Positions 1,684 through 64,000 of a stretch of DNA of 64,000 nt are shown here, piece after piece. Within the stretch, counting starts at the first letter, position 1; each line of letters starts with the position of its first letter. The notes under the pieces are model-generated. The model made no database searches. It was not told the DNA's origin and saw only the letters and a program-made list of their open reading frames with translations. The translations under genes and the position numbers were made by a program. The stretch comes from Betaproteobacteria bacterium RIFCSPLOWO2_12_FULL_62_58. GTDB lineage: Bacteria; Pseudomonadota; Gammaproteobacteria; Burkholderiales; SG8-41. The stretch is taken from NCBI GenBank assembly GCA_001772005.1, contig MERI01000231.1, positions 2,762 to 66,761 of the forward strand, read 5' to 3'.

Positions 1684-3156
1684 TCAACTGAGCAACCGCA
1701 ATATTTCCGTCGCGTCGGAAATTTCGTCCAGCTCCGCAATCAGCTCCATGGCTCGCTCCATATTGCGGGCTGGGATCGGTTTCGCTGAAAAGGAAACGCA
1801 GTCGCGAAACTTCGCTTCCAGGAATTCCCGTTTGACCGGATGTTTTGCGTCCCCAGGCACTCGGTCCGGCTGATGCGAGAACACCCTTCCGTCCTTCATG
1901 CGGATTTCCACGATGGGCTTAGAGGCCGAGGAGTAGTCTCCAGCCGCGCGCACCGACGCCATCTGCTCCGCCCGGTAGTTGACCTTGTCCGCCATCGCAA
2001 GGACGATCGGATCGCGCAGACCCTCCGGCGTGTAATCGCGCAGCGTCACGTTTCCTTTCGCCATCATCACCGCGCTGGTGAACGGGATGCTGAACTTTCC
2101 GTCAATGCTCTCCTGGGGGCGCCGTTTGCGGTCAAGCGGTTCGCACAACTGCTGTGTCGAAAGGTTGCCGCCGATCACCGAGATCGCCTCGACATCTTCG
2201 GGCCGCAGAGCATGCTGCTGCCGCAGCTCCAGGATGGCGGCATTGGTCGCCCGCGTATAGCCGCAAGCCGGCCAGACCTTGAACCCGTGTGTATCGAGCA
2301 GCGGAAAGCGCATCCCCAAACCCCCGACGAGGGCGTCCCAGTAGGGTGTGTCCGTGCGGATGTAGTTCTTGAACACGCCGAACGGACCTTCGACCACGTC
2401 TTTCGGACCAATGATGCCCCGCCGCGCCAGCTCGGCGGCCACGACCGCGCCCTGTCCGGAAAACCCCGCCTGCATCGAACGCATGTGTGTCGCCTCGCCC
2501 ACCGCCATCTGCCGGCTGCCGCTCATCTGATTGAAAGCGATCCCGAATGCGTTCTCCATCTGTTCCGCGTCCAACCCGAGCGCGTGCCCCGCCGTCGCAG
2601 CACCGCCGAGAAAACCGAACAACTGAGTCGCGAACCAGCCGGAATTCATCTGCCAGTCAGGCACGTCGATCGACAGGCAGAAGCGCGTCATTAGATCGGA
2701 ACCGGCGGCAAATGCGGTGATGAGGTCACGACCGCTGATCCCGCCCAGCTTTTCTCCCAGCGCGAGTGCAACGGGGATGGTGGCGATGCTGACGTGACCG
2801 CCGCCCACATCGTCATAATCGAGCATGTGTCCCAGGCTGCCGTTAACGAATACGGCCCACGGTGCAGGTGCCCTGCCACCAAAGCCGAGCACGCTACTTT
2901 CCGCCTTGCCGCCGAGTTCCCTCACATACTCCGCGACGATCCGCGCCTCGGGCGCGAGCGTACTGGCACCGATGCACACGCCGAGCGTGTCGAGAACACA
3001 TTGCTTGGCCACCGCGACGAGCGTCGGCGGAAGCTGCTCGTATCTCAGGCCGCTCGCGTGTCTCGCCAGCTTGCGTGTGGCATCCTTTCCCGTTGTTGTG
3101 TCGGTCATTTTCGACGGCTTTCCCGTCACACTTCGGTTTGCGCTCCCGTTGTCCAT
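1684..3156 (-). CDS. MmgE/PrpD family protein (paralog 1)
   Basis: Family-typical N-terminus (TRKLARHASGLRYEQLPPTLVAVAKQCVLDTLGV), typical length and domain order. The ORF opens at GTG 3168. ATG 3156 is preceded by GGAG at a 6-nt spacing. Confidence 0.85.
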   Translation of the reverse strand: MDNGSANRSVTGKPSKMTDTTTGKDATRKLARHASGLRYEQLPPTLVAVAKQCVLDTLGVCIGASTLAPEARIVAEYVRELGGKAESSVLGFGGRAPAPWAVFVNGSLGHMLDYDDVGGGHVSIATIPVALALGEKLGGISGRDLITAFAAGSDLMTRFCLSIDVPDWQMNSGWFATQLFGFLGGAATAGHALGLDAEQMENAFGIAFNQMSGSRQMAVGEATHMRSMQAGFSGQGAVVAAELARRGIIGPKDVVEGPFGVFKNYIRTDTPYWDALVGGLGMRFPLLDTHGFKVWPACGYTRATNAAILELRQQHALRPEDVEAISVIGGNLSTQQLCEPLDRKRRPQESIDGKFSIPFTSAVMMAKGNVTLRDYTPEGLRDPIVLAMADKVNYRAEQMASVRAAGDYSSASKPIVEIRMKDGRVFSHQPDRVPGDAKHPVKREFLEAKFRDCVSFSAKPIPARNMERAMELIAELDEISDATEILRLLS

Positions 3157-3184
3157 TTCTTTCTCCACGTCCCGTAGTGGGTCA

Positions 3185-3228
3185 TGCGACGCCGACGATA
3201 ACCCAGGCGGGAAGTGGTCGGCGTCGCA
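3185..3228 (-). promoter_or_regulatory. Perfect 12-bp inverted repeat (stem-loop) between PrpD paralogs 2 and 1
   Basis: TGCGACGCCGAC (3185..3196) and GTCGGCGTCGCA (3217..3228) with a 20-nt loop, 23 nt downstream of the PrpD-2 stop. No U-tract. Confidence 0.4.
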
Positions 3229-3250
3229 CCGCTTGGCGTCTCCTTTTGCA

Positions 3251-4639
3251 CTAGCCGTGTCGCGCTACCGCACGACCCTTGGATTCGGCCTCGACGACAA
3301 TAGCATCAAATGCAGGCTTGACGTCCGTCATCTCGTCGATGTTTTGCCATTGTTTGAGCGCGGACGCAGCGCGCGCTTCGCCAAGCCTTGGCTCACACAG
3401 ACGCATGAACTTGGTAGCAAGCTCGGCCGCGGAAACAGGATTGTCTTCATGGCCGAGTGGATTAACGATGTAGGCTTGATAAGACTTTCCTGAATGATCC
3501 GTCGCGGTCACCCGCATGCGCACTACCCGCGGAAAATCCTTCTCGAACTCGTCGTTGATCCGCACGGTCACGCGATTCATGAACGAGCGAATGGATGGAT
3601 CGAGATACGACTCCGGCACAAAAGCGCGCTGATCGATGAGTCCGTGGCGCAACGTCCACGCGAATATGTACGGTAGGCTGTGATCCGCGGTTTCCCTCGT
3701 CCTGGGGTCCCACTTGGCCGGTTCGCTCCCGCTCTCGTGCCAGGCCGACCAATAGGTCTCAACGTTTACGCTTGCGATCTGTTCGGCGGAAACCTGCTTG
3801 CGCAGCTCGATGGCGGCCCAGACGAGCGCCTGCATGTTGTAGACCACGGGCCAGTACTTGATTTTTGCCCGGGCGATAAAGAAGTCGTCCGGCGCCGTGC
3901 CGAACGGCGGGAGCTCGATCGGTCCGGAGATAAGCTCGGTGAGACCGTGGCGACCGGTGAAGGGTGCCTCGGGTCCGGTCATGCCGGCCGCGGCAAGCTG
4001 CACACCGAAGACGGCGTTGCGCACCGCATAGGCGGTCGCTGCGCCCTTCCACATTGAAAGTTGACCCGCCCGGCTGGCGCGCATCGGCATGTTGGCGACA
4101 GCCGTAATGCCGATCGCGTGCTGCGCGACTGCACGGCTCAACCCCATCAGGTTGGCGAGACCCGCAGCGGCTCCGACGCTGATACCGAATCCCTGGTCCC
4201 ATCCGCGCTCGCGCAGCTGCGCTTTCATCTGGAGCCGGATGAAGATTTCATACGCGACCACGGTCGCAGTGATCAACCGCTGGCCCGACGCCCCGATTTG
4301 CGGCGCGACGGCGAAGAGGCCGCCGAGGCTGTCGCTCGGATGGCCGCCCGGGTAGGTATCGTTGAAATCCAAGTCGCGGATCATGCACGAGTTAATGAAA
4401 GCCGCAGCGTCGGCCGCCGCGAGGTCGCTGGAGCCCAGGATGCGCCCGGCGAGCTCCTGCCGCGCAGCCGGCCCCGCGAGCGACCGGCCGATTTCCGCCG
4501 TATCGCAGTCGTATGCGCCGAGCGCGCACCCGAGCGCATCGAGGAGGCGCTCCTTGCCCGCTTTCACGGCGTTGGGCGGCAGGTCGCGGTAAGACAAACG
4601 GCTGGCAAAGTCCGCAAAGCTATTCAGAATCGGATCCAA
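3251..4639 (-). CDS. MmgE/PrpD family protein (paralog 2)
   Basis: The ORF runs to 4831, but its first 64 codons overlap the upstream Bug gene. An in-frame TTG at 4639 is preceded by AGGAGG with a 6-nt spacer. Family-like N-terminus (FADFASRLSYRDLPPNAVKAGKERLLDALGCALGA). Confidence 0.85.
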   Translation of the reverse strand: MDPILNSFADFASRLSYRDLPPNAVKAGKERLLDALGCALGAYDCDTAEIGRSLAGPAARQELAGRILGSSDLAAADAAAFINSCMIRDLDFNDTYPGGHPSDSLGGLFAVAPQIGASGQRLITATVVAYEIFIRLQMKAQLRERGWDQGFGISVGAAAGLANLMGLSRAVAQHAIGITAVANMPMRASRAGQLSMWKGAATAYAVRNAVFGVQLAAAGMTGPEAPFTGRHGLTELISGPIELPPFGTAPDDFFIARAKIKYWPVVYNMQALVWAAIELRKQVSAEQIASVNVETYWSAWHESGSEPAKWDPRTRETADHSLPYIFAWTLRHGLIDQRAFVPESYLDPSIRSFMNRVTVRINDEFEKDFPRVVRMRVTATDHSGKSYQAYIVNPLGHEDNPVSAAELATKFMRLCEPRLGEARAASALKQWQNIDEMTDVKPAFDAIVVEAESKGRAVARHG

Positions 4640-4667: not shown

Positions 4668-5684
4668 TCAACGCAAAGAACCCTTTTCGCTTCGGACACC
4701 CACGTCCTTCGCCAGCTTCCTGAATCGGTTGATCTCATCGGCAAGGTGTCGGCCGAAATCGGCGGGCGCGCCACCGACCGGTTCTGCTCCGTCCGCCACA
4801 AAGCGCTGGACGATTTCGGGCATGCGCACAATCTTGTTCATTTCTTCGTTCAATTTCGTTATGGCCGCATTCGGCGTGCCCGCGGGCGCAAGCACTCCAT
4901 ACCAGGTCAGAACGTGATAACCGGACACGCCGGCTTCTGCGATGGTGGGAACGTCGGGTGCTGCATTCGATCGTTTTGCGCTCGTGACGCCCAGTGCCCG
5001 CAGCCTGCCCGCTCGCCAGTGCTGAAGACCCGCTACTATGGCGGAAAAGGTGAACTGCACCTGCCCGCTGATTACCCCCGTCACAGCCGGAGAACCGCCC
5101 CGGTACGGCACGTGGTCCACCCCGATATCAGCCATGCGCTTGAACAGCTCGCCCGCCATGTGTCCGGAGCCGCCGTGTCCGCCCGAAGAAAAATTCAAAG
5201 TTCCGGGCTTGGCTTTGGCGAGCGCGATCAGGTCTTTCACTGTCCGGACGGGCAGTGACGGAGTCACCACCAGCAGAAACGGTGCCTGCCCAATCTGGAT
5301 TACAGGCGCGAAATCCTTGATCGAGTCGAACGGCAGATCGTAAAGGCTCGGGTTGATGCCAAAGCTGCTCGACACGACAAGCAACGTGTATCCATCGGGC
5401 TGGGCTTTTGCAACGATTCCCGCGCCGATCGATCCCGCCGCGCCAGAGCGGTTGTCGACGATCACCGACTGGCCTAGGGCTTCTGTAAGCTTCTGCGCAA
5501 TGAGTCGCGCAACGATATCGGTCGCGCCGCCGGGCGCCAGCCCGACCACGAAGCGCAGAGGCTTGATGGGATAGCTGTCGGCACTGGACTTCAAAGCGCT
5601 GCCGGTTTGCTGAGCTTGCACCGCAATCGATGGGGCGAGACACAGCAGCAGCGTCAGCAAAGTACTTTTAAATCGTTCGTTCAT
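4668..5684 (-). CDS. Bug-family (TctC-type) tripartite tricarboxylate transporter substrate-binding protein
   Basis: Signal peptide (LLTLLLCLAPSIAVQA) followed by the Bug signature YPIKPLRFVVGLAPGGATD. About 325 aa. Confidence 0.85.
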   Translation of the reverse strand: MNERFKSTLLTLLLCLAPSIAVQAQQTGSALKSSADSYPIKPLRFVVGLAPGGATDIVARLIAQKLTEALGQSVIVDNRSGAAGSIGAGIVAKAQPDGYTLLVVSSSFGINPSLYDLPFDSIKDFAPVIQIGQAPFLLVVTPSLPVRTVKDLIALAKAKPGTLNFSSGGHGGSGHMAGELFKRMADIGVDHVPYRGGSPAVTGVISGQVQFTFSAIVAGLQHWRAGRLRALGVTSAKRSNAAPDVPTIAEAGVSGYHVLTWYGVLAPAGTPNAAITKLNEEMNKIVRMPEIVQRFVADGAEPVGGAPADFGRHLADEINRFRKLAKDVGVRSEKGSLR

Positions 5685-5803: not shown

Positions 5804-6316
5804 TTACGAAGCGGTCTCTGCAAGGTAGCGCTTGCGGGCGAAAGCCGCCATCCCGCCACTCTCGAAAATCGCCTCTATCGTCGGCGGATACTTCCGCAAG
5901 GTCACCGTTGCGCCGGTCGCAACGTTGCGCGCGAGCGTGCGGCGGTAGTCGAGTTCCAGTGTCGCGCCATCCTCGATGATCTTGCCGATTTCCGGCGCGA
6001 TGAAAATCGGCATCGGTAGAGCGATGCTGTTGCGCAGGAACAACCGCGACGCGGACTCGACGACGATGGCGGCGATGCCGATCTCCTTCAATACCAGCCC
6101 GGGGCGATGCGAACCGCAGCCGAAGTTGCGGCCCGCAACGATGATGTCGCCAGGCTTCACCTCTTTCGGAAACTCGGGGCGGAATGATTCGAGGGTATGC
6201 TTCTTCAGCTCCGCCATCGTCGAATAGAGGTAATAGGGATTAATGGAATCGGTATCGACGGAATCCCCGAATTTCCAGACGCGGCCCGTGATCGCGCGGT
6301 TCAGGTCAAAGCTCAT
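5804..6316 (-). CDS. Aconitase-family dehydratase small subunit (LeuD-like), copy 1
   Basis: Starts MSFDLNRAITGRVWKFGDSVDTD and contains FGCGS. The ATG at 6316 is preceded by GGAGG and overlaps the LeuC-like stop by 11 nt. The longer ORF (to 6595) is an out-of-frame extension over the upstream gene. Confidence 0.85.
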   Translation of the reverse strand: MSFDLNRAITGRVWKFGDSVDTDSINPYYLYSTMAELKKHTLESFRPEFPKEVKPGDIIVAGRNFGCGSHRPGLVLKEIGIAAIVVESASRLFLRNSIALPMPIFIAPEIGKIIEDGATLELDYRRTLARNVATGATVTLRKYPPTIEAIFESGGMAAFARKRYLAETAS

Positions 6317-7583
6317 GAAACACCTCCTTCGGATTGACGATCTCTCCCGCCACCGCCGCGGCGGTAACGGTGAGAGGGCCGCCCAGATAGATTTGCGCCT
6401 CAAGACTTCCCTTGCGCCCCTTGAAATTGCGTGTAGTGGCGGTGATGCACACCTCGCCCGCGGAAAGGAATCCGACTTTCGGCTGGCACACGCCGCAGCC
6501 CGGCGTGACGACCTGCGCGCCCGATTCGATGAGCTGCTCGATGAGACCGGTTTTGAGGCACTGCAGGTAAACCTGCTGCGAGGCTGGCGAGACAAGGAAG
6601 CGAACGCCTTTAGCCACCTTGCGCCCTTTCAGCATGCGCGCGGCGATCTCGATGTCTTCGAAACGGCCATTCGCGCAGGACCCGATCTGGGCTTGGTCGA
6701 TGCGCGTGCCTTTCACCTCGTCGACGGGCACGACGTTGCCGAACTGGTGCGGCTTTGCGACAACGAACGGCATCTCGTCGACATCCACCACAATCTCCCT
6801 CACGTATTCGGCGTCGGCGTCGGCTACAAGCGGTTCATAGGGCTTGTCGGTGCGCCCGCGCAGGAACGCGTCGGTTTTCTCGTCCGCCGGGAACATCGCG
6901 AACTTTGCGGCCACCTCGACGCCGTGCGTGGACAGGCAGGCGCGGCTGTCGATGCTCAACTGAGGAACGAGCGGGCCGGTAAACTCGATTGACATGTTCT
7001 GAGCGAAGTCGTCTCCGTATTTTCCAGCCAGATAGAGCATGATGTCCTTCGCGATGGGGTATCGGGGTTGCGTGCCTTTCAGCACGATTTTCACCGAGGA
7101 AGGAACCTGAAACCACAGCTCGCCGAAGAGCATCGCGTACATGAGATCGGGCCGGGTGATGCCCGTGGCGCCCGCATTGAGCGCGCCGTAGCCGATAGTG
7201 TGAGAATCCATCCCGACCACCAGTTCGCCGGGGCGCGCAAGACCGTAGTCGAGGATCATCTGGTGAGCGATACCCGGCTCCGCGTCGTGAAAAATATTCA
7301 CGCCGAGCCGTGACGCTTCCTTCCGGATAAGGGCGTTATCATCGGCGATGGACTGGCTCAACGCTGGCTGGTGATGGTCGATCAGGAAAAAAACCTTATC
7401 CCGGTCCCACACGCGCGGAAAGCCGTCCGTAAATCCCGCCTGCACAGCCAGGCGGTGGACGTCCATGAAATGGTAATGACACATCGCGCCGTCGATGCGG
7501 GCGTCAACGATGTCGCCCGCCTTGACCGGCTCTCGCGCCAGGTTGTGCCGCGACAGCAGCTTTTCCGCCAGCGTTTGTCCCAT
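6306..7583 (-). CDS. Aconitase-family dehydratase large subunit (LeuC-like, ~425 aa short type), copy 1
   Basis: Contains DSHT, GSCANGR and PGCGVCQ Fe-S ligand motifs. Directly upstream of the LeuD-like gene. Confidence 0.85.
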   Translation of the reverse strand: MGQTLAEKLLSRHNLAREPVKAGDIVDARIDGAMCHYHFMDVHRLAVQAGFTDGFPRVWDRDKVFFLIDHHQPALSQSIADDNALIRKEASRLGVNIFHDAEPGIAHQMILDYGLARPGELVVGMDSHTIGYGALNAGATGITRPDLMYAMLFGELWFQVPSSVKIVLKGTQPRYPIAKDIMLYLAGKYGDDFAQNMSIEFTGPLVPQLSIDSRACLSTHGVEVAAKFAMFPADEKTDAFLRGRTDKPYEPLVADADAEYVREIVVDVDEMPFVVAKPHQFGNVVPVDEVKGTRIDQAQIGSCANGRFEDIEIAARMLKGRKVAKGVRFLVSPASQQVYLQCLKTGLIEQLIESGAQVVTPGCGVCQPKVGFLSAGEVCITATTRNFKGRKGSLEAQIYLGGPLTVTAAAVAGEIVNPKEVFHEL

Positions 7584-7620: not shown

Positions 7621-8625
7621 TTAATCGATTCGCGCGCCTGAAGCTCGCACGACGGCGGCCCACTTGTCAGTCTCTCTCTGCAGGAAAGCGCGCATCTCTT
7701 CCGGCGTGCTCGTCATCGAATCCGCCCCGCGGTTCTCGTAGTACTCGCGCACGTCCGGCAGAGCCACGCTCTGCTTGATCGCAGCGTTCAGCTTGCGGAC
7801 GATGTCTTCAGGCGTGCGCGCAGGCACCACGATGCCGAACCAGTTCACCGCTTCATAGCCAGGGTAGCCCGATTCGGCGATGGTCGGCACGTCCGGCAAT
7901 GCACGCACGCGGCGACTCGACGTCACGGCGAGCGGCCTCAGTCTGCCGGAGCGAATGTGTGGTTGCAGTGGCGAGACATTGGCGAACAGTACCTGAATGC
8001 GCCCGCTGATGACGTCCGGGATTGCGAAGGCACTGCCTTTGTAGGGAACGTGCACCATGTCCACGCCGGCCCTCGACTTGAACAATTCGGTGGCGAGGTG
8101 GTTGACCGCACCGTTACCCGTCGAGCCGTAGCTGGCTTGTCCGGGCCGTTGCTTCAGGAACGCCACGAAATCCCGTACTGACTTCACGGGTAGTGACGGA
8201 TGTACCACCGCGCAGAGCGGCTCAGACCCGATCAGTGTGACGGGCGCGAAGTCGCGCGCGAGATCATACGAGAGCTTGCGATAAAGGCTCGGCGCGATCA
8301 CATGCGGTGCCGATACCATGAACAGGATGTAGCCGTCCGGCGCTGCCCTGGCCGCTATTTCCGCGCCGATGTTGCCGCCGGCACCCGGCCGGTTGTCGAT
8401 GATCAACTGCTGGCCGAGGCTGTCTGCCAGCTTCTGCGCGATCGAGCGTATCAGCAGGTCGCTCGCTCCGCCGGGTACCTGCGCGACGATGATGCGCACG
8501 GGCTTCGCCGGGTAAACCTGGCTGGCGGCCGGCAAGGCCAGGAGCAGCAGTAATGCGATCGCCGCCCGGCCCAATAACTCGAATCCCAATGATGGATTGA
8601 ACTGCCGGTACGGGAATTGTCTCAT
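7621..8625 (-). CDS. Bug-family substrate-binding protein
   Basis: Signal peptide followed by YPAKPVRIIVAQVPGGASD. Its ATG overlaps the stop of the upstream flavoprotein gene (ATGA). Confidence 0.85.
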   Translation of the reverse strand: MRQFPYRQFNPSLGFELLGRAAIALLLLLALPAASQVYPAKPVRIIVAQVPGGASDLLIRSIAQKLADSLGQQLIIDNRPGAGGNIGAEIAARAAPDGYILFMVSAPHVIAPSLYRKLSYDLARDFAPVTLIGSEPLCAVVHPSLPVKSVRDFVAFLKQRPGQASYGSTGNGAVNHLATELFKSRAGVDMVHVPYKGSAFAIPDVISGRIQVLFANVSPLQPHIRSGRLRPLAVTSSRRVRALPDVPTIAESGYPGYEAVNWFGIVVPARTPEDIVRKLNAAIKQSVALPDVREYYENRGADSMTSTPEEMRAFLQRETDKWAAVVRASGARID

Positions 8626-16719: not shown

Positions 16720-16789
16720 GGCGTGACCAATCGTTCCCGTGAACAGGCGTCGACCGTTACGACGCCAAACGGCGGAGAAAAGCGCAACA

Positions 16790-48745: not shown

Positions 48746-48767
48746 GCTATTCATTCTCCCGGATAAC

Positions 48768-49592: not shown

Positions 49593-49699
49593 GGCAGGTC
49601 CTCATCGGCTGGCTTCACAAAGGTGCACAGCGTCAGCCAACCTCCTTAAGATACGACAAAGCGGGTCGTTCTCGGCAGGGGACGATCGCGCAGTCATCA

Positions 49700-57093: not shown

Positions 57094-58539
57094 CTAGCTA
57101 TTGCATCTCAGATGTTCCGTGCTTCCCATGGTTAACGGCGAGTCGGAATCCCAGGCGTGTCTTTTGGTCAGCCCCGCACTATGTTCCCGCTGCGCCTCGG
57201 CGGTGGCCCGAGTAAGTTTCGCAATGGCGTCCAGGCGCTGGATCGAGCGCGCAAGACCCAGCAACCGGCGTGCGCCAGCGTCTGTCAAGGCGCGGCGTAC
57301 ACAATCCAGGAATTTTTCTTCATGCTCGGCCGGCGGCATGGGCGAAGCCGGCGAGCCTGGGGTTTTGGTGACGCGCGTAGAAAACACGCCGCGGCGGGTC
57401 GAAATTTCGACATCGTTGTAGCCAACAACTCCGGAATACATCCTCGCATCGGCGATGTGATAGCGCTCGACGCGACGCATCATTTCTCGCAGGACGAGAC
57501 GCTGCACCATTGCGTCCGTGAAAGTTTCGAGACCTAGTCTGCGATCGAGCACTATGGCTGCTGCGACATACTCGATGCTGAACTTTCCCTCGAGTCCGGT
57601 TTGCGGATTGGTATGTATGAGCGGCTCGTCAGTTCCCGGCGGAAACCCCACCCTGATTTTCTCAATCTCTTCTGAAGCGATCGAATGCGCTCGCAGTAAG
57701 TCGAGCAGACCTCCTACCGCACGATGGGTACAGTAACAGCACGGCCAACGCTTATAGCTGATCCCTGGCACCACCGCCTCCCACGGATTGCCGAGGTTAT
57801 TCAGCGTTGAGCTGAGTGAAGGGCCATCCGCGTGGTACATGTCAATGAAGCTGTGCTTTCCATCAAGAATCGCGGGATCGGCGGTAAAACCAGATCGGGC
57901 GAGCGTGGCCGCATGCACAGCGCAACGCGCTGCATGCCCCACCTGCAAAGGCTTGGTCATCGTGCCGAGGTTACGAACAAGCCCTGCGGCCTGCGATGCG
58001 GCTACCCCCCACGCATGACACAGCTCCCGCACACTCATACGCCACAACCGAGCCGCAACAGCCGTCGAAGAAAAAATCCCGACGGTCGCTGTACTATGCC
58101 ATCCGTGCAGATAATGGCTATCGCCCAGCGCTCTCCCGAGTTTACCCGCCACTTCAAGACCTAGCGCATACGCGGTCAATACCTCACGCCCGGAAGCCGC
58201 CGTCGTTTCCCCGACAGCCAACGCGACCGGCATCATCGTTGCGCTCGGATGGCCACGCAGACCGGCCATTGTGTCGTCAAAGTCAAGCGCGTGGCTTGCA
58301 ATGCCGTTTATAAATGCGGCATCCGCTGCCGACGTGAACAGATCCCGCCCCCACACGGTGGCCTTCGACCCGGTTTGCAGTTCTTGAACGCACCGCAGTG
58401 CAATGTCCACCACTGGCTCCCGCGTCCCCGCAAGCCCGACACCAAGCGTATCGATCAGCGCAATCTGAGCGCTCTCCAGGACCGGGGCCGGAATCTCCCC
58501 GGCCTCAACGACAAAGCGCCCCAGACGTTCAGTCTGCAT
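57094..58539 (-). CDS. MmgE/PrpD family protein (paralog 8)
   Basis: From ATG 58539: LGRFVVEAGEIPAPVLESAQIALIDTLGVGLAG. Closest in layout to paralog 3. One nt separates it from the upstream stop. Confidence 0.85.
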   Translation of the reverse strand: MQTERLGRFVVEAGEIPAPVLESAQIALIDTLGVGLAGTREPVVDIALRCVQELQTGSKATVWGRDLFTSAADAAFINGIASHALDFDDTMAGLRGHPSATMMPVALAVGETTAASGREVLTAYALGLEVAGKLGRALGDSHYLHGWHSTATVGIFSSTAVAARLWRMSVRELCHAWGVAASQAAGLVRNLGTMTKPLQVGHAARCAVHAATLARSGFTADPAILDGKHSFIDMYHADGPSLSSTLNNLGNPWEAVVPGISYKRWPCCYCTHRAVGGLLDLLRAHSIASEEIEKIRVGFPPGTDEPLIHTNPQTGLEGKFSIEYVAAAIVLDRRLGLETFTDAMVQRLVLREMMRRVERYHIADARMYSGVVGYNDVEISTRRGVFSTRVTKTPGSPASPMPPAEHEEKFLDCVRRALTDAGARRLLGLARSIQRLDAIAKLTRATAEAQREHSAGLTKRHAWDSDSPLTMGSTEHLRCNS

Positions 58540-58540
58540 A

Positions 58541-59596
58541 TCAGTCTGCACGCGCCCCGGACGCTCGCACCACGGCCGACCATTTGGTGATCTGTAATTT
58601 GATATACGCGCCAAACCTTTCCGGCGTGGTAATAAAAGGCTCAGCGCCCGTTTTTGATAACTGCTCCCTGACATCCGCCATATTCAATATCCTGTTGATC
58701 TCCTGGTTCAGCCGTGTCGTAACGGCGGTCGGGGTGCCGACAGACGTGACCACACCGAACCAGCCGTCCGCTTCATAGCCAGGCAATCCAGATTCCGAGA
58801 CCGTGGGCACATCCGGCAGAAATCGGGATCGCTTAACGCAAGTCACCGCAAGGACGCGTACTTTCCCGCTTTTTATCAATGGCATCGCTGGTGGTAGATT
58901 GACGAACATCAAGGGAACCTGACCGCTCATCACGTCAACAAGAGCAGGGGTGGTGCCCTTATATGGAACATGCACGATGTCAATACCCGACATCGTCTTG
59001 AATAATTCACCTGATAAATGAATACCGGTTCCCGTACCGCCCGATGCAAAATTCAACGCCCCCGGCCGAGATTTGGCCAACCTGATCACATCTTTCACCG
59101 ATTTCGCCGGGACAGACGGGTGTGCAACAAGCACATTACAAACGTTGATCAGCGAGGCGACCGGGGTGAAATCTTTTACCGGGTCATAAGGCAGATGACG
59201 ATATAAGCTTGGATTGATGGCATAAGCTGTCGAGATTAAGAGGATCGTGTATCCGTCTGGTGCAGTTCTCGCCGCCAGTTCGCTGCCAATACGGCCAGCC
59301 GCCCCCGGCCTGTTGTCGACTACGATCTGCTGACGAAGACCCTCAACTAATTTTTGAGCGACGATCCTGGCGGGAATGTCGCTTGCTCCACCCGCTGGCC
59401 CCGCTACGATGAAACGAATCGGCTTATTCGGGTATTCGCTGCCGAGAGTCAATCCAGAAAGACAGAGCGGAACTACCAGCACGAAGAACGACTGCTTCAC
59501 GTGGAAACGTCTTCGATCGACGGCCCCGATTGGCCGCCGTCTTCGAGAGCGTGCGGCGCCCCGCCTCAGGGGTAACCGGCTGAACAAGAAGCGCAT
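58541..59596 (-). CDS. Bug-family substrate-binding protein
   Basis: YPNKPIRFIVAGPAGGASD. A GTG at 59500 gives a normal signal peptide (VKQSFFVLVVPLCLSGLTLG), so the ATG 59596 start is probably too long. Confidence 0.85.
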   Translation of the reverse strand: MRFLFSRLPLRRGAARSRRRRPIGAVDRRRFHVKQSFFVLVVPLCLSGLTLGSEYPNKPIRFIVAGPAGGASDIPARIVAQKLVEGLRQQIVVDNRPGAAGRIGSELAARTAPDGYTILLISTAYAINPSLYRHLPYDPVKDFTPVASLINVCNVLVAHPSVPAKSVKDVIRLAKSRPGALNFASGGTGTGIHLSGELFKTMSGIDIVHVPYKGTTPALVDVMSGQVPLMFVNLPPAMPLIKSGKVRVLAVTCVKRSRFLPDVPTVSESGLPGYEADGWFGVVTSVGTPTAVTTRLNQEINRILNMADVREQLSKTGAEPFITTPERFGAYIKLQITKWSAVVRASGARAD

Positions 59597-59615: not shown

Positions 59616-60716
59616 TCAAGCCGTATGAGCGGCCTTCTCAGCCTTAAGTCGTGGTGAGGTAAGTTTTATTCCAAGAATCTCGCGCGCTTCGTCCGGTGTG
59701 GCTATTTCCCTTCCTAATTCTCTAGCGATCGTGGCGACTTTTCGCACCATATCGGCATTTCTTTGTATGACGTCGTCCTTGTGCGGATACACCCAATAAC
59801 AATCTTCAGCTCCCACTCTCACGATCTGCGCGCCGAGCATTATTCCCAATACAGTTATCGGCAGCCAATTCCGTCCGCCGACGTAGACCCCCATCACGCT
59901 GTCTGGAATTGTTTCTTTAACCATGTAGAAACTCGTGATAAGTTGCAGCGCTCCCCAGGGATCCTTGTGTATGGTGTATGAATCATGTTTCCCCATGTGC
60001 AGATTTAGGATGTAAGGTTTCATCCTGGAGAGGCCGGGATCTATCAGAATATCCTTCAAGCGCATCAACGAAATCGGATTGTAGAGTTGGTAGACAGGTT
60101 TAACATTGTGTTCTTCGAGAAACGGAATCCCCTCGATGAGGGATTTTTCACTAATGTGGAAATCCCCCGGCTCGTATCTGCCCCATCCAACAAGCACAAC
60201 ACTTCCCTGGCAGTACTTGTTGCCATTACCCATCTCAAGTAATTTTTTTGTTTTCTTTATCCAGTCAACCTCCGCGCCGAAACGATCGAACGTGTCTTGC
60301 ATAGTGACCATGTCGACCTTCTCGTAGACGCGGTCGAAAATTTCTGCGTTTAGCTTCGGGTCATATGCTTTTTCCGTCCGGAAACCCCGCTCCGGATCTA
60401 TCGCATGGTGGTGAATTGCAGCGGCGCCTTCCTTCACCGAGTCGACAATCGTATCTACCTGTTCTTCCACCGTGCACGGAATGGCCGGATATCTTATTCC
60501 TCCCTCTTTGTAGCCGGGGGGCTCGAACGGATAAATTTCCCGAGGTCCCCAGAATCGGACAGATGGCCCAGTAGTTGCGCACTCAATAATGAGTTTTTTA
60601 TCCATCGTCGGGATTCGAGGCTCGAGGTCGATTGGAAATCTTTTCAGCCGAATCCTGATGTACTCTTCAAGCGATTTCGCCCAATCTTTGACAGGCGCTT
60701 TGTATTCCATAACCAC
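59616..60716 (-). CDS. BKACE / DUF849 family (3-keto-5-aminohexanoate cleavage enzyme-like) protein with N-terminal extension
   Basis: LIIECATTG, the AAIHHHAIDP metal motif and VRVGAEDCYW match the BKACE TIM-barrel signature. About 38 extra N-terminal residues. Lowest GC in the window. Confidence 0.7.
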   Translation of the reverse strand: MVMEYKAPVKDWAKSLEEYIRIRLKRFPIDLEPRIPTMDKKLIIECATTGPSVRFWGPREIYPFEPPGYKEGGIRYPAIPCTVEEQVDTIVDSVKEGAAAIHHHAIDPERGFRTEKAYDPKLNAEIFDRVYEKVDMVTMQDTFDRFGAEVDWIKKTKKLLEMGNGNKYCQGSVVLVGWGRYEPGDFHISEKSLIEGIPFLEEHNVKPVYQLYNPISLMRLKDILIDPGLSRMKPYILNLHMGKHDSYTIHKDPWGALQLITSFYMVKETIPDSVMGVYVGGRNWLPITVLGIMLGAQIVRVGAEDCYWVYPHKDDVIQRNADMVRKVATIARELGREIATPDEAREILGIKLTSPRLKAEKAAHTA

Positions 60717-61039: not shown

Positions 61040-61056
61040 ATTGCAGAGCTTGCAAT
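61040..61056. promoter_or_regulatory. Inverted repeat ATTGCA-gagct-TGCAAT upstream of the probable IclR-2 start
   Basis: A 6-5-6 palindrome 45-95 nt upstream of the candidate ATGs. It shares the TTGCA core with the repeats at 29184..29236. Confidence 0.3.
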
Positions 61057-61943
61057 CGTCGACCCATTTGAATAGATTCGGATTCAGCATCGCCCGCGAC
61101 ATGACCCGGACAACGCAGGGAAAGAACCAGCTTGTCACACCCCGGCAAAATATGCCCAAGACGCGGCGAAAATCTGGCGGCACACGAAGCATTGAACGCA
61201 CGGTCCAGCTGCTGCGAGAAATAGCGAGATTCGGCAGGCGTGGCGCAAGGCTGTCCGACCTTGTCATGGCAACCCAGCTTGGATACGCGACGGCCCATCG
61301 CATCTTGAAATGCCTTGTCGATCAGGAGCTAGCCGAAAAAGATCTGCGAACACGACGCTATTCGCTGGGTCAACTAATCTACGAACTGGGTCTTGGTGCC
61401 ACACCGAAAGTAAACCTGCGCGAGATATGTGAGCCGATCGTTTCATGCATCGCGGAGCGAACCGGCGATACCGTCTTTCTCCATGTTCGCAGCGGCCTAG
61501 ACGTCCTTTGCATCGACCGCAAGGAAGGAATGTCGCCGATCAAGACCCATGTCTTTGACATCGGAAGCCGTCGGCCTCTCGGGGTAGGAGCCGGAGGAAT
61601 TGCGCTGTTGGCCGCCCTGCCTCAAGACGAGGTTGAGGAAATTGTGAACACAATCGCACCTCGCCTCTTACCGTGGCGCGTAACACCAAAAAGGGTGTTG
61701 ATAATGGTCGCACGCGCGAAACGAGACGGTTATGTAGCTACAGAAGGTGCCGTAGTGAAATGGGTGAATGCTGTAAGTGTTCCGTTTGGGGGGCAGAACG
61801 GATTGCCGCAGGCTACAATCACCATTGCCACGATTCCTCCCCGTCTTCCTAGCTCGAGGCAGCACGAATTGGTGGCCATGTTACGCGCGGGAATACGGGA
61901 AATCGAAAGACTCGCGAAGGAATTTTCGTCCCCTGGGCGGTGA
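61041..61943 (+). CDS. IclR-family transcriptional regulator
   Basis: wHTH (SIERTVQLLREIARFGRRGARLSDLVMATQLGYATAHRILKCL) plus an effector domain. The likely start is ATG 61152 (MPKTRRKSGG) or 61101. Confidence 0.85.
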   Translation: MQSLQSSTHLNRFGFSIARDMTRTTQGKNQLVTPRQNMPKTRRKSGGTRSIERTVQLLREIARFGRRGARLSDLVMATQLGYATAHRILKCLVDQELAEKDLRTRRYSLGQLIYELGLGATPKVNLREICEPIVSCIAERTGDTVFLHVRSGLDVLCIDRKEGMSPIKTHVFDIGSRRPLGVGAGGIALLAALPQDEVEEIVNTIAPRLLPWRVTPKRVLIMVARAKRDGYVATEGAVVKWVNAVSVPFGGQNGLPQATITIATIPPRLPSSRQHELVAMLRAGIREIERLAKEFSSPGR

Positions 61944-62232
61944 GTGGACATCGACGGCACGCATGACGGTCACCCACAGTCTGCACACGCTGCGGTTCCG
62001 GCACGAGTCTTGAGCCAGCCGCAATCCCCGGCAGAAATCCACACAGTTTGACCGCGCCGAGAGAGAGTAGGAGCGTTACCCGGATAAAGTTTGCTCCGCG
62101 CGCCCGTCGCCTATCCCCGCAGCAAGACTGCGGGGGTATTACGGCGACGAAAAACAAAATCACGGCGCGCTTCGCTAACGTCAACAACAAAAAACATGCA
62201 GTTCCCGCGTGCCAAGAGCACGGGGAATAGCG

Positions 62233-62443
62233 AGTTCAATCCTGCACAGTAGAAATTGCAGGGCGTGCATGAAGTGAGAATCTTCAGGTCGGATAGCATG
62301 TGACGCCAGCCGCTGTGCACATACCTTTCAAACGGGGAGCCGTCTAGCTCCTCCGCGGTGTCGCCCTCTATGATTCCGTAGAACACGCGTCCCTGCTGCT
62401 CGAATCGTCCATACTTCATTTTTTGCACTCCGCTCATGATCAA
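62233..62443 (-). pseudogene. N-terminal fragment of a fumarylacetoacetate hydrolase (FAH)-family gene
   Basis: MKYGRFEQQGRVFYGIIEGDTAEELDGSPF....LSDLKILTSCTPCNFYCAGLN matches the FAH-family N-terminal domain up to the ..GLNY motif. Homology is then lost and the ORF ends at 110 aa. Confidence 0.5.
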
Positions 62444-62461
62444 TGGTGAGCCGGAAAGCGG

Positions 62462-63370
62462 TTACCTTTTTCGCTGCTGCTTTTGTAGCGCTTCCAGAAT
62501 GTTGCATGACGCCTGAGCATGCTGCAGAAATGTCCCGAACGATGCGGAATCCAAAAAATGACTTCCCCAGAAATGCTCGTCCAGCAGACGAGTCCATTCG
62601 GGGCACCCAGCAAGTCGGCGAACTGTTCCTTCCCAGAAATCGACAGCTTCTTGCAATAGCCCAGGCGGTCCAATAATCCCGCGCCATGCGACAAAAGGAT
62701 GCCGAACGCCGACTTCTTTAAGGCAGACCGTGCGTTGAAAAGGTCCGGGCAAAGGCCGATCGCTCGATACCGCAATCGGGTGGCACTGCTGGGAATACGC
62801 GAGCCGCGCGATGGCGGCTGCAGTATCGGCATATAGCTGGATTACATCCGACGCGAGTGCTCCAAGCGCGGCGTCCTCGTTTTCGAATACTTTTGTCACA
62901 GCCGTCTTATCTAGGTGGAACGCTTCCAAGGCGCGCGTAACGGCGAGATGGCGTGCGTTCCCCGGCTTTCCGACGAACCCGGTTTCAAGCGGCGAGTGCC
63001 GGCGCTGAACCGATTCGACAAAGCCACTCCAATCGAGAGCCGGTTCGCACGGCTGGACGCCGAGTACGATGTATTCGTCAACCAGTAGCGCGATGGAGGT
63101 GAAGTCGGTCGGTCCCACGGTCGACTTACCGCTCAGGTAATTGCTAACGAGCATGTTCGACGCGATGCCGATTGTATGACCGTCCGCTGGGCACTCGCGC
63201 AAGCGCTCCCATGTGAGCGCTTGCCCTCTGCCGGGCAAGTTGACGACCTCGATCTGCACACCCGTTGTCGACTCGATGGTCCTTTGGATGACGCGTGCGA
63301 GCACATCATTTGCACCGCCGCGCTTTGACCCGACAACAAGCTGCACCGCGCGGTTGGGTCGCCAAGACAT
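62462..63370 (-). CDS. Divergent TctC-type binding-protein homolog lacking a signal peptide
   Basis: Starts MSWRPNRAVQLVVGSKRGGANDVLARV, which aligns with the mature N-terminus of TctC-type proteins. An in-frame TGA lies 6 codons upstream of the ATG. Confidence 0.65.
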   Translation of the reverse strand: MSWRPNRAVQLVVGSKRGGANDVLARVIQRTIESTTGVQIEVVNLPGRGQALTWERLRECPADGHTIGIASNMLVSNYLSGKSTVGPTDFTSIALLVDEYIVLGVQPCEPALDWSGFVESVQRRHSPLETGFVGKPGNARHLAVTRALEAFHLDKTAVTKVFENEDAALGALASDVIQLYADTAAAIARLAYSQQCHPIAVSSDRPLPGPFQRTVCLKEVGVRHPFVAWRGIIGPPGLLQEAVDFWEGTVRRLAGCPEWTRLLDEHFWGSHFLDSASFGTFLQHAQASCNILEALQKQQRKR

Positions 63371-63425
63371 GGACTCCGCTACAATTCAGGAAGGTCCGTT
63401 CGCGCGTCGCGCGCGGCATCCCATG

Positions 63426-64000
63426 TCATTGCTTCTTGAGCATGCCTAGCTCGCCCAGCGCCTTCTCTACCTCCTTATGCGTCTCGTCCATGAACGCTTC
63501 GAGATCACGGCTGTTCATAAACTGCCCTTCCCATCCGTTCTCGTCCAGTATCTTTTTCCACTCGCTATCCCCGGAGAGCCGGTTGAAGCGGCCCTCCCAG
63601 TACGCAATCTGTTCCGGGTTCATGTCTCGGGGGCCGATGATGGCGCGGTACTTCGACAGATACGGCTTCACGCCGAGCTCGCGAAAGGTGGGCACGTCCG
63701 CGTAGACGCCGCTCAGGCGGTTCGGTGCTACCGTGGCGATCGCGCGCAGCCGTCCTGCGTTGAGGTGAGATATGACCACCGAAGGGCTCAACGCGATCAT
63801 GTCCACGTGTCCGCCGAGCAGCGCGGTGACACTGCTGCCGCCCGCGTTGAACACTACCGTTCGGACCTTCTTCACGTCCACCCCCGCTCCGCTAAGCGCC
63901 ATGGCCGCGGCCAAGTGATTTGAGCCGCCCGCGGCCGTCGATACACCGAGAGAAACGGCGTTCGGGTCTTTTTTTAGTATCTGGATAATGTCGGCCGGAC
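63426..64000 (-). CDS. TctC-type substrate-binding protein, 5' end beyond the window
   Basis: The reading frame stays open to nt 64000 (..DPNAVSLGVSTAAGGSNHLAAAMALSGAGVD..). Canonical C-terminal lobe. Confidence 0.75.
   Translation of the reverse strand, partial: PADIIQILKKDPNAVSLGVSTAAGGSNHLAAAMALSGAGVDVKKVRTVVFNAGGSSVTALLGGHVDMIALSPSVVISHLNAGRLRAIATVAPNRLSGVYADVPTFRELGVKPYLSKYRAIIGPRDMNPEQIAYWEGRFNRLSGDSEWKKILDENGWEGQFMNSRDLEAFMDETHKEVEKALGELGMLKKQ

Follow-up and report, generated by a model that had tools for sequence, protein, structure and literature searches.

Orphan Bug proteins, the periplasmic binding proteins also known as TctC, share a few TctAB units (PMC5812351). The TTT binding proteins can reach considerable numbers, as in Rhodoplanes, where 434 of them are encoded, with up to nine in one array (PMC5994714). 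MmgE/PrpD genes have been described in their company. In SAR11 islands TTT paralogs adjoin multiple prpD genes and are inferred to import their substrate (PMC11796062), and in Cupriavidus necator the itaconate/methylsuccinate cluster, which encodes an MmgE/PrpD isomerase, is neighboured by a TctC gene noted there as of unknown function (PMC12290011). Given these precedents, the view of an earlier note on this DNA that the pairing is not an explained association was overstated. On a Variovorax megaplasmid, genes for RraA, MmgE/PrpD, TctC and IclR follow one another, and in mycobacteria and their relatives three PrpD genes form a conserved cluster with TctC and TctA. We analysed a window of 64,000 nucleotides from an uncultured bacterium whose nearest named relatives, judged from named homologues with 55-59% identity, are Betaproteobacteria/Burkholderiales MAGs. 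Its 62-kb gene-bearing stretch is a dense case of a known genome style, with many separate modules for uptake and breakdown of di- and tricarboxylic acids, and no new type of system. Similar architectures were found in comparison loci: 3 PrpD and 7 TctC genes in 21 kb (L011), one PrpD with 6 TctC genes (L091), and three PrpD genes together with HMGL, CoA-transferase, ACAD and TctC genes (L089).

The window contains eight intact MmgE/PrpD-family genes, as had been claimed; each spans nearly the whole family profile and carries both PF03972 and PF19305. Seven of the start positions given earlier stood, and for PrpD7 53483 is likelier than 53513, according to gene calls on identical metagenome contigs. 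PrpD1 (1684-3156, minus strand, 490 aa) covers profile positions 3-461 of 463 and has an altered active site (H148F and K196R, in PrpD8 numbering). Alterations were also found in PrpD2 (3251-4639, minus, 462 aa; H83R, D88N and H148D), which adjoins TctC1. PrpD4 (33602-35008, plus) and PrpD7 (52074-53483, minus), the latter adjoining TctC10, are 55% identical and share a remodelled first active-site motif (H83D, D86G, D88S). The active site is canonical in PrpD3 (18305-19657, minus), PrpD6 (43891-45246, minus) and PrpD8 (57094-58539, minus), which has TctC genes on both sides and is 54% identical to PrpD3. In PrpD5 (38370-39725, plus) the His and Lys active-site residues are canonical.

The label PrpD did not hold up as a statement of function. 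We rejected 2-methylcitrate dehydratase for all eight proteins, because every NCBIfam cut-off was missed; PrpD2 scored highest, with 122 bits against a cut-off of 950, and PrpD1 had no NCBIfam PrpD match. Moreover, an NCBIfam profile search of the window detected no methylcitrate-cycle partner genes. As a group, the eight proteins are nearest to iminodisuccinate epimerase, PrpD8 being the closest (2HP3, E=5e-102; 39% identity over 413 residues). A C4 1,4-dicarboxylate backbone is common to all MmgE/PrpD substrates known so far, and the family is proposed to work through a shared enolate mechanism (PMC12290011). Judging from characterised family members, each PrpD-like enzyme of the window would contribute one step to the pathway of its module, acting by enolate-type chemistry (epimerisation/isomerisation, dehydration or decarboxylation) on a substrate built on a succinate-like C4 dicarboxylate backbone.

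For the binding proteins we counted 13 complete genes and one cut by the window end, 14 altogether, plus three remnants. The earlier count of 15 plus one fragment differs only in what is taken as a fragment. All 15 TctC ORFs of at least 90 aa match PF03401, and all but one of the 14 binding proteins begin with a signal-peptide-like N-terminus. The proposed division into two subfamilies is real, with 17-26% identity across types compared with 35-49% within type A. Type A proteins are Bug27/TphC/BugD-like (E about 1e-70) and comprise TctC1 (4668-5684, minus; PF03401 with E=1e-70, signal peptide), TctC2 (7621-8625, minus), TctC3 (11506-12483, minus; 58% identical to a TctC in L011), TctC4 (30199-31179, plus), TctC7 (42216-43217, minus), TctC10 (51003-52040, minus), TctC11 (55983-57008, minus) and the Bug27/TphC-like TctC12 (58541-59596, minus). 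Type B proteins are nearer to PDB 4X9T and 25hk (E about 1e-26 to 1e-29), and their genes associate with cupin genes, not with PrpD genes. TctC5 (36015-37016, plus) lies between a bicupin (35054-36004, plus) and a cupin gene (37026-37451, plus), and TctC6 (40565-41557, plus) lies beside an SDR gene (39691-40506, plus). TctC8 (47684-48793, minus) and TctC9 (49747-50778, minus) are 73% identical; a further bicupin is encoded at 48768-49592 (minus). TctC14 (63426-64000, minus) is the gene cut by the window end and encodes 333 aa on identical contigs. The divergent, type-B-like TctC13 (62462-63370, minus; profile positions 26-325) has no signal peptide.

We consider it probable that at least eight operon-like di-/tricarboxylate modules make up the window as a patchwork, in which the two families co-occur through shared operons and form no dedicated one-to-one PrpD-Bug partnership. 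A module, with boundaries drawn from strand and spacing, would consist of at least one orphan periplasmic TTT binding protein and a set of cytoplasmic enzymes, in some cases with a GntR, IclR or LysR regulator, and the eight anciently diverged MmgE/PrpD proteins would be scattered through these modules. PrpD and TctC, both polycarboxylate specialists, would meet because they are co-transcribed in operons for uptake plus catabolism.

The enzyme content differs along the window. On the left, the minus strand encodes two copies of a LeuCD/homoaconitase-type hydratase of the aconitase family (Pfam Aconitase and Aconitase_C). Copy a (small subunit 5804-6316, large subunit 6306-7583) scores above the NCBIfam cut-offs of NF001614 and TIGR02087, and copy b (small 12545-13063, large 13053-14333) shares about 70% DNA identity with it over parts of the genes. 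A TcuA-type FAD-dependent tricarballylate dehydrogenase (8622-10154, minus) was assigned by the equivalog NF006130 (577.6 bits, cut-off 369), and a paralogous TcuA-like dehydrogenase with FAD_binding_2 lies at 15089-16600 (minus), preceded on the map by a GntR/FCD regulator (14354-15070, minus). A CapA-like PGA_cap protein (PF09587; 10372-11481, minus) belongs to a family that also adjoins TctC and TcuA genes in L011. The PEP-mutase/isocitrate-lyase superfamily protein at 16739-17731 (plus; PF13714) was rejected as a true PrpB, with 116 bits in the prpB model against a cut-off of 354. Upstream of PrpD3 and co-directional with it, the run at 19682-29101 (minus; Pfam and NCBIfam, some start codons uncertain) encodes a gamma-glutamyltransferase, a CobW GTPase, an acyl-CoA dehydrogenase, an HMG-CoA-lyase-like protein, two MaoC hydratase halves, a class III CoA-transferase, an SDR and an amidohydrolase. 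Its HMGL, ACAD and MaoC genes recur at 66-71% identity in another comparison locus (L040), with a PrpD between them.

Further to the right, an IclR-type regulator that may be truncated (29458-30120, plus; IclR_C, the C-terminal domain, only) is found upstream of TctC4, a thiamine-diphosphate enzyme (31225-32937, plus) and a flavin reductase (32957-33589, plus), both enzymes assigned by Pfam and NCBIfam. The E1 beta and alpha subunits of a 2-oxoacid dehydrogenase (45258-47263, minus) were recognised by Transket_pyr, Transketolase_C and E1_dh, with the beta start uncertain. An ornithine cyclodeaminase/mu-crystallin family (OCD) protein (53510-54493, minus), an amidohydrolase (54553-55887, minus) and a beta-keto acid cleavage enzyme (BKACE) family protein (59616-60710, minus; PF05853 on the identical contig, NCBIfam matches below cut-offs) belong to the gene run from 60710 to 51003. 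An IclR regulator (61041-61943, plus; annotation of the identical contig) is divergent from this run.

The earlier note read the arrangement as tight, repeated pairs and suggested that each PrpD handles the ligand of the neighbouring Bug, so that the two genes would form one functional unit. Some of the gene order speaks for it, since PrpD2-TctC1, PrpD7-TctC10 and TctC11-PrpD8-TctC12 are contiguous and co-directional. Adjacency in the window is nevertheless what the density of TctC genes predicts. Four of eight PrpD genes lie directly beside a TctC, compared with 3.6 after shuffling of gene order (P=0.54), and seven of eight lie within two genes of one, compared with 5.6 (P=0.28); unrelated window genes are directly beside a TctC equally often (15/33). 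PrpD1, PrpD4 and PrpD5 have no directly adjacent TctC, and PrpD3 has none nearby, the distances being about 5.8 kb to TctC3, which ends at 12483, on one side and 10.5 kb to TctC4, which starts at 30199, on the other. TctC genes outnumber PrpD genes about 2:1 (14 versus 8), and those of type B sit beside cupins. Nor are the partners conserved: the neighbours of PrpD8 relatives (55-59% identity) differ from one to the next of the four genomes we examined, and the TctC beside the relative in L011 is closest to TctC3, not to TctC11 or TctC12. One-to-one cognate processing is hence an unlikely account of the window.

A genome-wide co-localisation check had been proposed, and our comparison covered two independent samples, each of 80 loci centred on a PrpD gene and 160 in total, drawn from other genomes and metagenomes. 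PrpD touched TctC more often than expected from within-locus shuffling in both samples (17/46 versus 10.8, P=0.012; 28/62 versus 21.3, P=0.031). The association is thus real, although modest in strength, with a 1.3-1.6-fold excess. TctC density peaks beside PrpD and drops about 4- to 20-fold by 5-9 kb, depending on sample and bin. The association also occurs where TctC is not expanded and TctA is adjacent, in complete TctA-containing systems of Actinomycetota, Acidobacteriota and Rokubacteria, which suggests that uptake and catabolism are functionally linked; confining it to Burkholderiales is unneeded. The conserved mycobacterial cluster also fits dedicated pairs, but a single orthologous arrangement found in several actinobacterial loci inflates the statistics. 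When this arrangement is counted once, PrpD-adjacent TctC genes in non-betaproteobacterial loci fall from 9 to 4.

Decayed genes bear on the same question. We confirmed three PrpD fragments, at 37645-38070 (plus), 41878-42132 (minus) and 48644-48706 (minus), and each of them is fused to TctC sequence. An hmmsearch of the six-frame translation revealed two decayed junctions. In the first (37645-38314, plus) the PrpD remnant (profile 220-360) is joined to a C-terminal TctC remnant (profile 234-325; 38051-38314). In the second (41878-42201, minus) a TctC remnant (profile 36-57; 42136-42201) is joined to a PrpD4-like N-terminal remnant (profile 44-126), and this junction forms an inverted repeat with PrpD4 that is 72% complementary. 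The third fragment lies within the TctC8 ORF, where residues 30-50 resemble the N-terminal region of PrpD1 and continue the reading frame of the signal peptide; of these 21 residues, 14 are identical to PrpD1 residues 23-43 (E=2e-5). Because PrpD remnants are fused to TctC and an excess is seen elsewhere, the sequence data suggest that particular PrpD-TctC pairs have a tighter association than operon membership in general would produce.

No TctA or TctB partner was found in the window, in agreement with the earlier note; the sequence available is a 94-kb scaffold. Among window ORFs of 90 aa or longer, none has as many as three hydrophobic segments, and hence no multi-pass membrane protein was detected; the TctA profile had no match in six frames of the window or of the flanks, which identical contigs made readable for about 8-9 kb to either side. 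These contigs also have no multi-pass ORF annotated as TctA or TctB in that distance past either end. A conventional TctCBA operon just outside the window, serving the whole region, is thereby very improbable, although TctA does adjoin PrpD-linked TctC genes in other phyla. Of the 46 TctC genes that adjoin a PrpD in the comparison loci, 39 lack a TctA within 2.5 kb. Under the patchwork model, the binding proteins would capture periplasmic carboxylates and pass them to a shared TctAB unit encoded elsewhere, as in Bordetella.

Orphan TctC proteins could instead be mainly periplasmic sensors, signalling to regulators, and not transport components. Bordetella BctC indeed interacts with the sensor kinase BctE (PMC5812351), and regulator genes (GntR, two IclR and LysR) accompany the modules. 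These regulators are, however, cytoplasmic one-component types, the hydrophobic-segment scan of the window revealed no sensor kinase or membrane signalling protein, and the characterised orphan TTT binding proteins AdpC and TphC act in uptake (PMC5812351). We regard a mainly sensory role as improbable.

The "iteration" of genes described earlier holds for the number of paralogs, not for their age. PrpD paralogs are 21-35% identical, apart from the two pairs at 54-55%, and TctC paralogs 17-49%, apart from TctC8 and TctC9. This pair, the sole fairly recent duplication, gives the best DNA repeat between paralogs (81% over the first 300 nt), and near-identical DNA repeats are absent from the window. 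A PrpD-Bug cassette duplicated in tandem under selective pressure would account for these closer pairs and for the two copies each of the TcuA and aconitase-like genes, but the divergence of most paralogs, neighbour genes that differ between modules and a GC content ranging from 54 to 63% along the window make recent local amplification exceedingly improbable. Besides the three PrpD remnants, marks of decay include three TctC remnants, the third being a pseudogene (43207-43866, minus) that lacks profile positions 102-204 through an internal deletion, and an intergenic amidohydrolase remnant (47521-47643) with 77% DNA identity to 27925-28047. As read from the sequence, the region most likely grew by accumulation of old, diverged and partly decaying modules rather than by recent amplification.

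Separate metagenome assemblies yielded at least two long contigs with identical gene order, and this independent recovery rules out an assembly artefact as the source of the gene concentration. The end genes recur with identical protein sequences on shorter contigs from several further samples. One flank carries an IS21 element; the opposite end of the gene region, immediately within the left edge of the window, has a tRNA 3' fragment and a toxin-antitoxin pair.

Open reading frames of at least 90 aa were clustered by all-against-all BLASTP, and the counts were refined by a profile search of the six-frame translation. Clustering revealed two big families in the window, one of 15 and one of ten ORFs. 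All 15 members of the larger family matched the TctC profile (PF03401); 13 were full length, one was cut by the window end and one was internally deleted. In the other family, MmgE_PrpD_N (PF03972) and MmgE_PrpD_C (PF19305) were each matched by nine of the ten ORFs. The profile search identified eight intact PrpD genes, which span profile positions ~1-11 to 461-462 of 463. Numbered by rising coordinate, these are PrpD1 (1684-3156), PrpD2 (3251-4639), PrpD3 (18305-19657), PrpD4 (33602-35008), PrpD5 (38370-39725), PrpD6 (43891-45246), PrpD7 (52074-53483) and PrpD8 (57094-58539). A GTG start for PrpD1 was considered and dropped; an exact-match look-up was empty, and the gene call on an identical contig begins at the ATG at 3156. 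Two PrpD remnants (37645-38070 and 41878-42132) were recovered by the six-frame profile search. A third, 21 residues long and resembling the N-terminus of PrpD1 (48644-48706), is fused in frame with the TctC8 signal peptide; it was spotted by eye and confirmed by BLASTP.

The TctC genes comprise 13 complete copies and one cut by the window end (TctC14), hence 14 in 62 kb, and the profile search added TctC remnants at 38051-38314, 42136-42201 and 43207-43866. BLASTP clustering, Pfam and the profile search show that the inventory of an earlier note, which had counted eight PrpD and 15 TctC genes from the sequence, was accurate. The two TctC subfamilies proposed there are likewise real, with 35-49% identity inside type A (TctC1-4, 7 and 10-12) against 17-26% across types. 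Type A proteins match Bug27, TphC and BugD (E ~1e-57 to 1e-70), and type B proteins (TctC5, 6, 8, 9 and 14) find their best matches in the PDB entries 25hk and 4X9T (~1e-26 to 1e-29). A crude hydrophobicity check shows an export-signal-like N-terminus, with an Ala-rich site after a hydrophobic stretch, in every complete TctC except TctC13, which points to a periplasmic location. TctC13 (62462-63370, minus strand) is divergent, with 17-29% identity to the other TctC proteins, lacks a signal peptide and aligns to the profile only from position 26 onwards; it is possibly a cytoplasmic copy or one in decay. The ORF adjoining it (~62111-62419) has a fragment-like appearance and holds a Rv2993c-like N-terminal domain only.

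Although the eight PrpD-like proteins share the two-domain fold family (PF03972 and PF19305) of the true methylcitrate-cycle PrpD, they score far under its equivalog cut-offs. The best score against the NCBIfam 2-methylcitrate dehydratase equivalogs (TIGR02330, NF006943, NF042438) was 122 bits against a cut-off of 950, and three of the eight paralogs had no hit at all to these models. Furthermore, by Pfam and NCBIfam the window lacks prpC, prpE and a genuine prpB, as well as any citrate-synthase-like or acyl-CoA-synthetase gene; a protein of the PEP-mutase/isocitrate-lyase superfamily is not PrpB (116 bits against the PrpB cut-off of 354). Given the low scores and the missing partner genes, we rejected 2-methylcitrate dehydratase (EC 4.2.1.79) as a function for all eight. 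When a profile of the eight proteins was run against the PDB, the iminodisuccinate (IDS) epimerase of Agrobacterium tumefaciens BY6 (2HP0/2HP3), itself an MmgE/PrpD-family enzyme, was the closest solved structure (2HP0, E=1e-115), followed by Bacillus IRG1 and mammalian cis-aconitate decarboxylase. The PrpD structures came last (~1e-39), far below IDS epimerase and IRG1. IDS epimerase was also the closest solved structure to PrpD8 (39% identity, E=5e-102).

Catalytic positions were mapped by aligning PrpD8, whose numbering is used here, to cis-aconitate decarboxylase chain 12vt_A. The aligned positions are those that we take to be the human CAD residues usually cited, H103, H159, K207 and K272. 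H97 and K263 are invariant across the eight paralogs, and the conserved His/Asp/Lys set of carboxylate-binding and catalytic residues, which includes the equivalents of human CAD D93, H103, H159, K207 and K272, is complete in PrpD3, 5, 6 and 8. The remaining paralogs carry replacements: H83D, D86G and D88S in PrpD4 and PrpD7, H148F and K196R in PrpD1, and H83R and H148D in PrpD2. PrpD3 and PrpD8 keep the H..D.DD...H, Y...WH, TM.K and K..P residues of IDS epimerase. They retain Y143, H148, K196 and K263, and only these two have Tyr143, which aligns with the Tyr of the epimerase HYLxGWH motif; at 39% identity PrpD8 is too distant for a shared substrate to be assumed or fixed. Unlike the IDS epimerase system, the window has no identified C-N lyase partner, six of the eight paralogs lack Tyr at 143, and acid/base residues are remodelled in three or four of them. 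Every characterized MmgE/PrpD enzyme uses substrates built on a C4 1,4-dicarboxylate backbone, with an enolate as the probable intermediate, and the majority of homologues are uncharacterized (PMC12290011). The eight proteins of the window most likely differ in specificity, and possibly in reaction type.

The earlier note had also stated that neither TctA (PF01970, 12-TM) nor TctB (4-TM) accompanies the binding proteins, and this is confirmed. Across all six frames of the window, three or more hydrophobic segments do not occur together in a single ORF of 90 aa or longer. A TctA profile made from six Pfam-verified TctA proteins gave zero matches in the window and in the ~8-9 kb flank on each side, which we could read from identical metagenome contigs, and the flank gene calls include no TctA or TctB on either side (~8-9 kb each). 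A TctAB unit immediately outside the window is therefore ruled out over this distance. Beyond the left end lie genes for an alpha/beta hydrolase, an amidohydrolase_2 protein, an ECF sigma factor and a Ser/Thr kinase; beyond the right end follow the remainder of TctC14, an amidohydrolase, a LysR regulator and an IS21 element (IstA/IstB). The gene order of the window was recovered on at least two long contigs from separate metagenome assemblies, and hence the region is neither an assembly artefact nor a chimera. Genes encoding proteins identical to those of the end genes were found on shorter contigs from several further samples.

To judge the pairing of PrpD with TctC inside the window, gene order was permuted among its 58 genes, 15 of which are TctC genes or TctC remnants. 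Four of the eight intact PrpD genes directly touch a TctC gene, compared to a shuffled mean of 3.6 (P=0.54), and seven of eight lie within two genes of one, compared to 5.6 by shuffling (P=0.28). Among unrelated genes, 15 of 33 touch TctC. Adjacency thus stands at the density expectation, and by its own reckoning the earlier note's claim of a tight, repeated PrpD-Bug pairing falls for the window. The unusual feature is the regional density of both families and not their pairing. All three PrpD remnants are joined to TctC sequence, which gives a weak hint that PrpD and TctC were once neighbors at these sites; it is weak because deletion can also join non-adjacent genes.

We then searched the GTDB species representatives, and metagenomes from JGI, with an alignment of PrpD8 and PrpD3. 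From each source 80 loci were collected as an independent set, including flanks of at most 10 kb, and PrpD and TctC were located in them with profiles of the window proteins. The loci were seeded from one PrpD subfamily and reach relatives at 28-58% identity. TctC density peaks in the slot adjoining PrpD. In the genome set it reaches 1.97 per 10 kb there and drops to 0.10-0.24 at a distance of 5-9 kb from the nearest PrpD; the corresponding values of the metagenome set are 3.60 and 0.22-0.84 per 10 kb. When order was shuffled inside each locus, 17 of 46 PrpD genes touched TctC in the first set against 10.8 expected (P=0.012), and 28 of 62 against 21.3 in the second (P=0.031), both counts being based on heuristic gene calls. 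Other genes touched TctC in 22% and 31% of cases in the two sets. Across these 160 PrpD-centred loci the association that the earlier note had proposed for a wider test does exceed shuffling, and its effect is only modest: the link in other genomes is real but modest.

The PrpD-adjacent TctC genes are mostly orphans (39/46 overall). A Pfam-verified TctA adjoins TctC beside PrpD in loci of Actinomycetota (L037, L056, L072 and relatives), Acidobacteriota (L057, L062) and a Rokubacteria MAG (L079), and the link extends beyond the lineages in which Bug genes have expanded. Six actinobacterial loci represent one orthologous arrangement; counting it once lowers the PrpD-adjacent TctC genes in non-betaproteobacterial loci from 9 to 4. 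In Actinomycetota, including Mycobacterium and Mycolicibacterium (L054, L055, L056, L065, L067, L072), three MmgE/PrpD paralogs are followed directly by TctC and then, where the contig reaches, by TctA. Pfam confirmed this TctA in L056 and L072, and the TctA profile recognized it in L054, L065 and L067; in L055 the contig stops shortly after TctC. The conserved cluster is a complete, uncharacterized TTT-linked PrpD system.

Very similar architecture is found elsewhere, and the window is a dense case of a known genome organization. A betaproteobacterial MAG locus (L011) has three PrpD and seven TctC genes in 21 kb, with TcuA-like, PGA_cap and TctC genes 46-59% identical to their window counterparts. 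Six TctC genes surround a PrpD8 relative in L091, and three PrpD genes occur with HMGL-like, CoA-transferase, ACAD and TctC genes in L089. The annotation of a Variovorax boronicumulans megaplasmid lists RraA, MmgE/PrpD, a TTT binding protein and IclR in order. Clustering of PrpD paralogs is general, with 122 PrpD genes across the 80 metagenome loci.

The other genes of the window show a consistent carboxylate-catabolism theme by Pfam and NCBIfam, and strand and spacing suggest at least eight operon-like modules. A co-directional run ending in PrpD3 (18305-29101) encodes a class III CoA-transferase, two MaoC halves, an HMG-CoA-lyase-like protein, an acyl-CoA dehydrogenase, an SDR, an amidohydrolase, CobW and GGT. 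Its gene context resembles the itaconate/methylsuccinate clusters of Cupriavidus necator and Pseudomonas aeruginosa, in which an MmgE/PrpD protein is the (S)-(R)-methylsuccinate isomerase (PMC12290011) and is accompanied by a class III CoA-transferase, a MaoC-type hydratase, a lyase and an acyl-CoA dehydrogenase. The C. necator cluster is adjoined by a TctC gene of unknown function (PMC12290011). The window run differs in that its lyase is HMG-CoA-lyase-like, GGT, CobW, SDR and amidohydrolase genes are added, and PrpD3 is nearer to IDS epimerase. In a Xanthobacteraceae MAG (L040, 1-3945), MaoC, HMGL-like, PrpD and ACAD genes form a single run. Apart from PrpD, these genes share 66-71% identity with those at 22478-25251 of the window, and the PrpD is closest to PrpD6 (46%), not PrpD3. 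This suggests that PrpD has been exchanged among CoA-pathway modules that are otherwise conserved.

Two TcuA-type FAD-dependent tricarballylate dehydrogenases are encoded at 8622-10154 and, as its paralog, at 15089-16600, both on the minus strand. The first scores 577.6 bits against a cut-off of 369 (NCBIfam equivalog NF006130), and neither a TcuB electron-transfer partner nor a TcuC transporter was identified in the window. Each is accompanied by one of the two LeuCD/homoaconitase-type hydratase pairs of the window and by a TctC gene, and a TcuA-like gene also stands beside PrpD8/3 relatives in L010 and L011 (55-59% identity). Further genes encode a thiamine-diphosphate enzyme, a flavin reductase, E1 alpha and beta subunits, an OCD/mu-crystallin protein, a second amidohydrolase, BKACE, three cupins and regulators of the GntR and IclR types. 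All three cupin/bicupin genes adjoin a type B TctC gene, in the orders bicupin-TctC5-cupin (35054-37451) and TctC9-bicupin-TctC8 (47684-50778), a pairing tighter within the window than that of PrpD and TctC. The IclR-type regulator upstream of TctC4 (29458-30120, plus strand) has 220 aa and the C-terminal effector domain only, compared to 300 aa in its paralog at 61041-61943; it may have lost its DNA-binding domain, or its start codon may be miscalled.

Orphan Bug expansion, in which a few TctAB units are shared, is established (PMC5812351; PMC5994714); Rhodoplanes alone has 434 TTT binding proteins, and its arrays contain as many as nine (PMC5994714). As in Bordetella, Cupriavidus and Rhodoplanes, the window contains many diverged TctC proteins with signal peptides, no adjoining TctAB, and a setting of catabolic genes and LysR/IclR/GntR regulators, and it has the arrays TctC9-TctC10 and TctC13-TctC14. 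It differs in its high local density (14 genes in 62 kb), in the intermixed type B subfamily and in coming from an uncultured organism whose closest named homologues are only 55-59% identical. In SAR11 genomic islands, the TTT paralogs Tct-7 and Tct-8 have multiple prpD genes as neighbors, from which the authors infer import of the PrpD substrate (PMC11796062). Here too several PrpD-family genes cluster with TTT binding proteins in a flexible genomic region, but the SAR11 loci are complete TctCBA operons including prpF, whereas the binding proteins of the window are orphan and far more numerous. PrpD-TctC proximity has thus been noted as instances in two papers (PMC11796062, PMC12290011). Our literature search found no systematic analysis of the linkage, and the TTT reviews do not mention PrpD.

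The best-supported explanation of the co-occurrence is generic operon logic. Proteins that bind carboxylates in the periplasm and enzymes that transform them in the cytoplasm would be co-located in uptake-plus-catabolism modules, with a shared TctAB encoded elsewhere serving as the membrane unit. PrpD and TctC genes of other genomes show an additional affinity for each other, which is genuine though modest. A bolder reading, which we consider rather unlikely, would make MmgE/PrpD a principal, phylum-spanning enzymatic partner of TTT uptake, and the island would then encode several undiscovered activities on TTT-imported substituted succinates or natural aminopolycarboxylates. These may include the remodelled-site variants PrpD4/7, PrpD1 and PrpD2. 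The position of the IDS-epimerase-like PrpD3/8 near amidohydrolase, OCD-family, GGT and BKACE genes would fit this idea. To our knowledge, the ligands of most Bug/TctC proteins are not known. If the bolder reading holds, the neighboring Bug proteins would be ready-made ligand probes for a family of ~50,000 mostly uncharacterized homologues. MmgE/PrpD proteins occur in 19% of GTDB species, and of about 50,000 homologues only four activities are known (PMC12290011). Since the cross-genome link is modest yet reproducible, ligand screens of PrpD-adjacent binding proteins could nominate enzyme substrates, and the window brings eight diverged enzymes together with fourteen binding proteins on a single clone-sized fragment. 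Its main value lies in assigning functions to both families; no new type of system or mechanism is revealed.

The paralogs are old. PrpD identities are 21-35%, except for PrpD3/8 (54%) and PrpD4/7 (55%), TctC paralogs are similarly diverged apart from TctC8/9 (73%), and the best DNA repeat between paralogs reaches 81% identity over 300 nt. Recent tandem amplification is ruled out by these paralog identities. Joint duplication of PrpD with TctC was rejected as well. The TctC neighbors of the PrpD4/7 and PrpD3/8 pairs are not mutually closest, therefore there is no sign of a PrpD-Bug cassette duplicated as a unit, and TctC10 is about equally similar to every type A paralog (41-49%). GC content varies between 54 and 63% within the window, and decayed gene copies are common. 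Old modules appear to have accumulated in the region and to be in turnover. A plasmid origin was dismissed, as no PLSDB record exceeds 40% protein identity to PrpD8. One metagenomic homologue is 92% identical to PrpD8, followed by a gap to 62% or less; the named homologues are Betaproteobacteria/Burkholderiales MAG proteins (55-59% identity), which makes a betaproteobacterial origin probable, though not certain.

Just inside the left edge (744-1390, minus strand) are a TumE toxin gene and an HVO_A0114-family antitoxin gene. On the right flank, another HVO_A0114-family gene and the IS21 element (IstA/IstB) occupy 1760-2107 and 3561-5829 of L001, a contig matching the window region. This arrangement fits a genomic island of ~66 kb, a gene-rich region bracketed by mobile or selfish elements. 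No tRNA gene or Rfam family was called in the window. Between PrpD1 and the TumE gene (1555-1580, minus strand), where ARAGORN and Rfam made no tRNA call, lies a lone tRNA 3'-end fragment, GGGTTCGAATCCTGCCGGGCGCGCCA, that ends in CCA and has a degenerate T-stem upstream. A second copy was absent from the window and the fetched loci, except at the same site in L005-L008, further contigs that match the region. The fragment may be the remnant of an attachment site at one edge of an integrated island.
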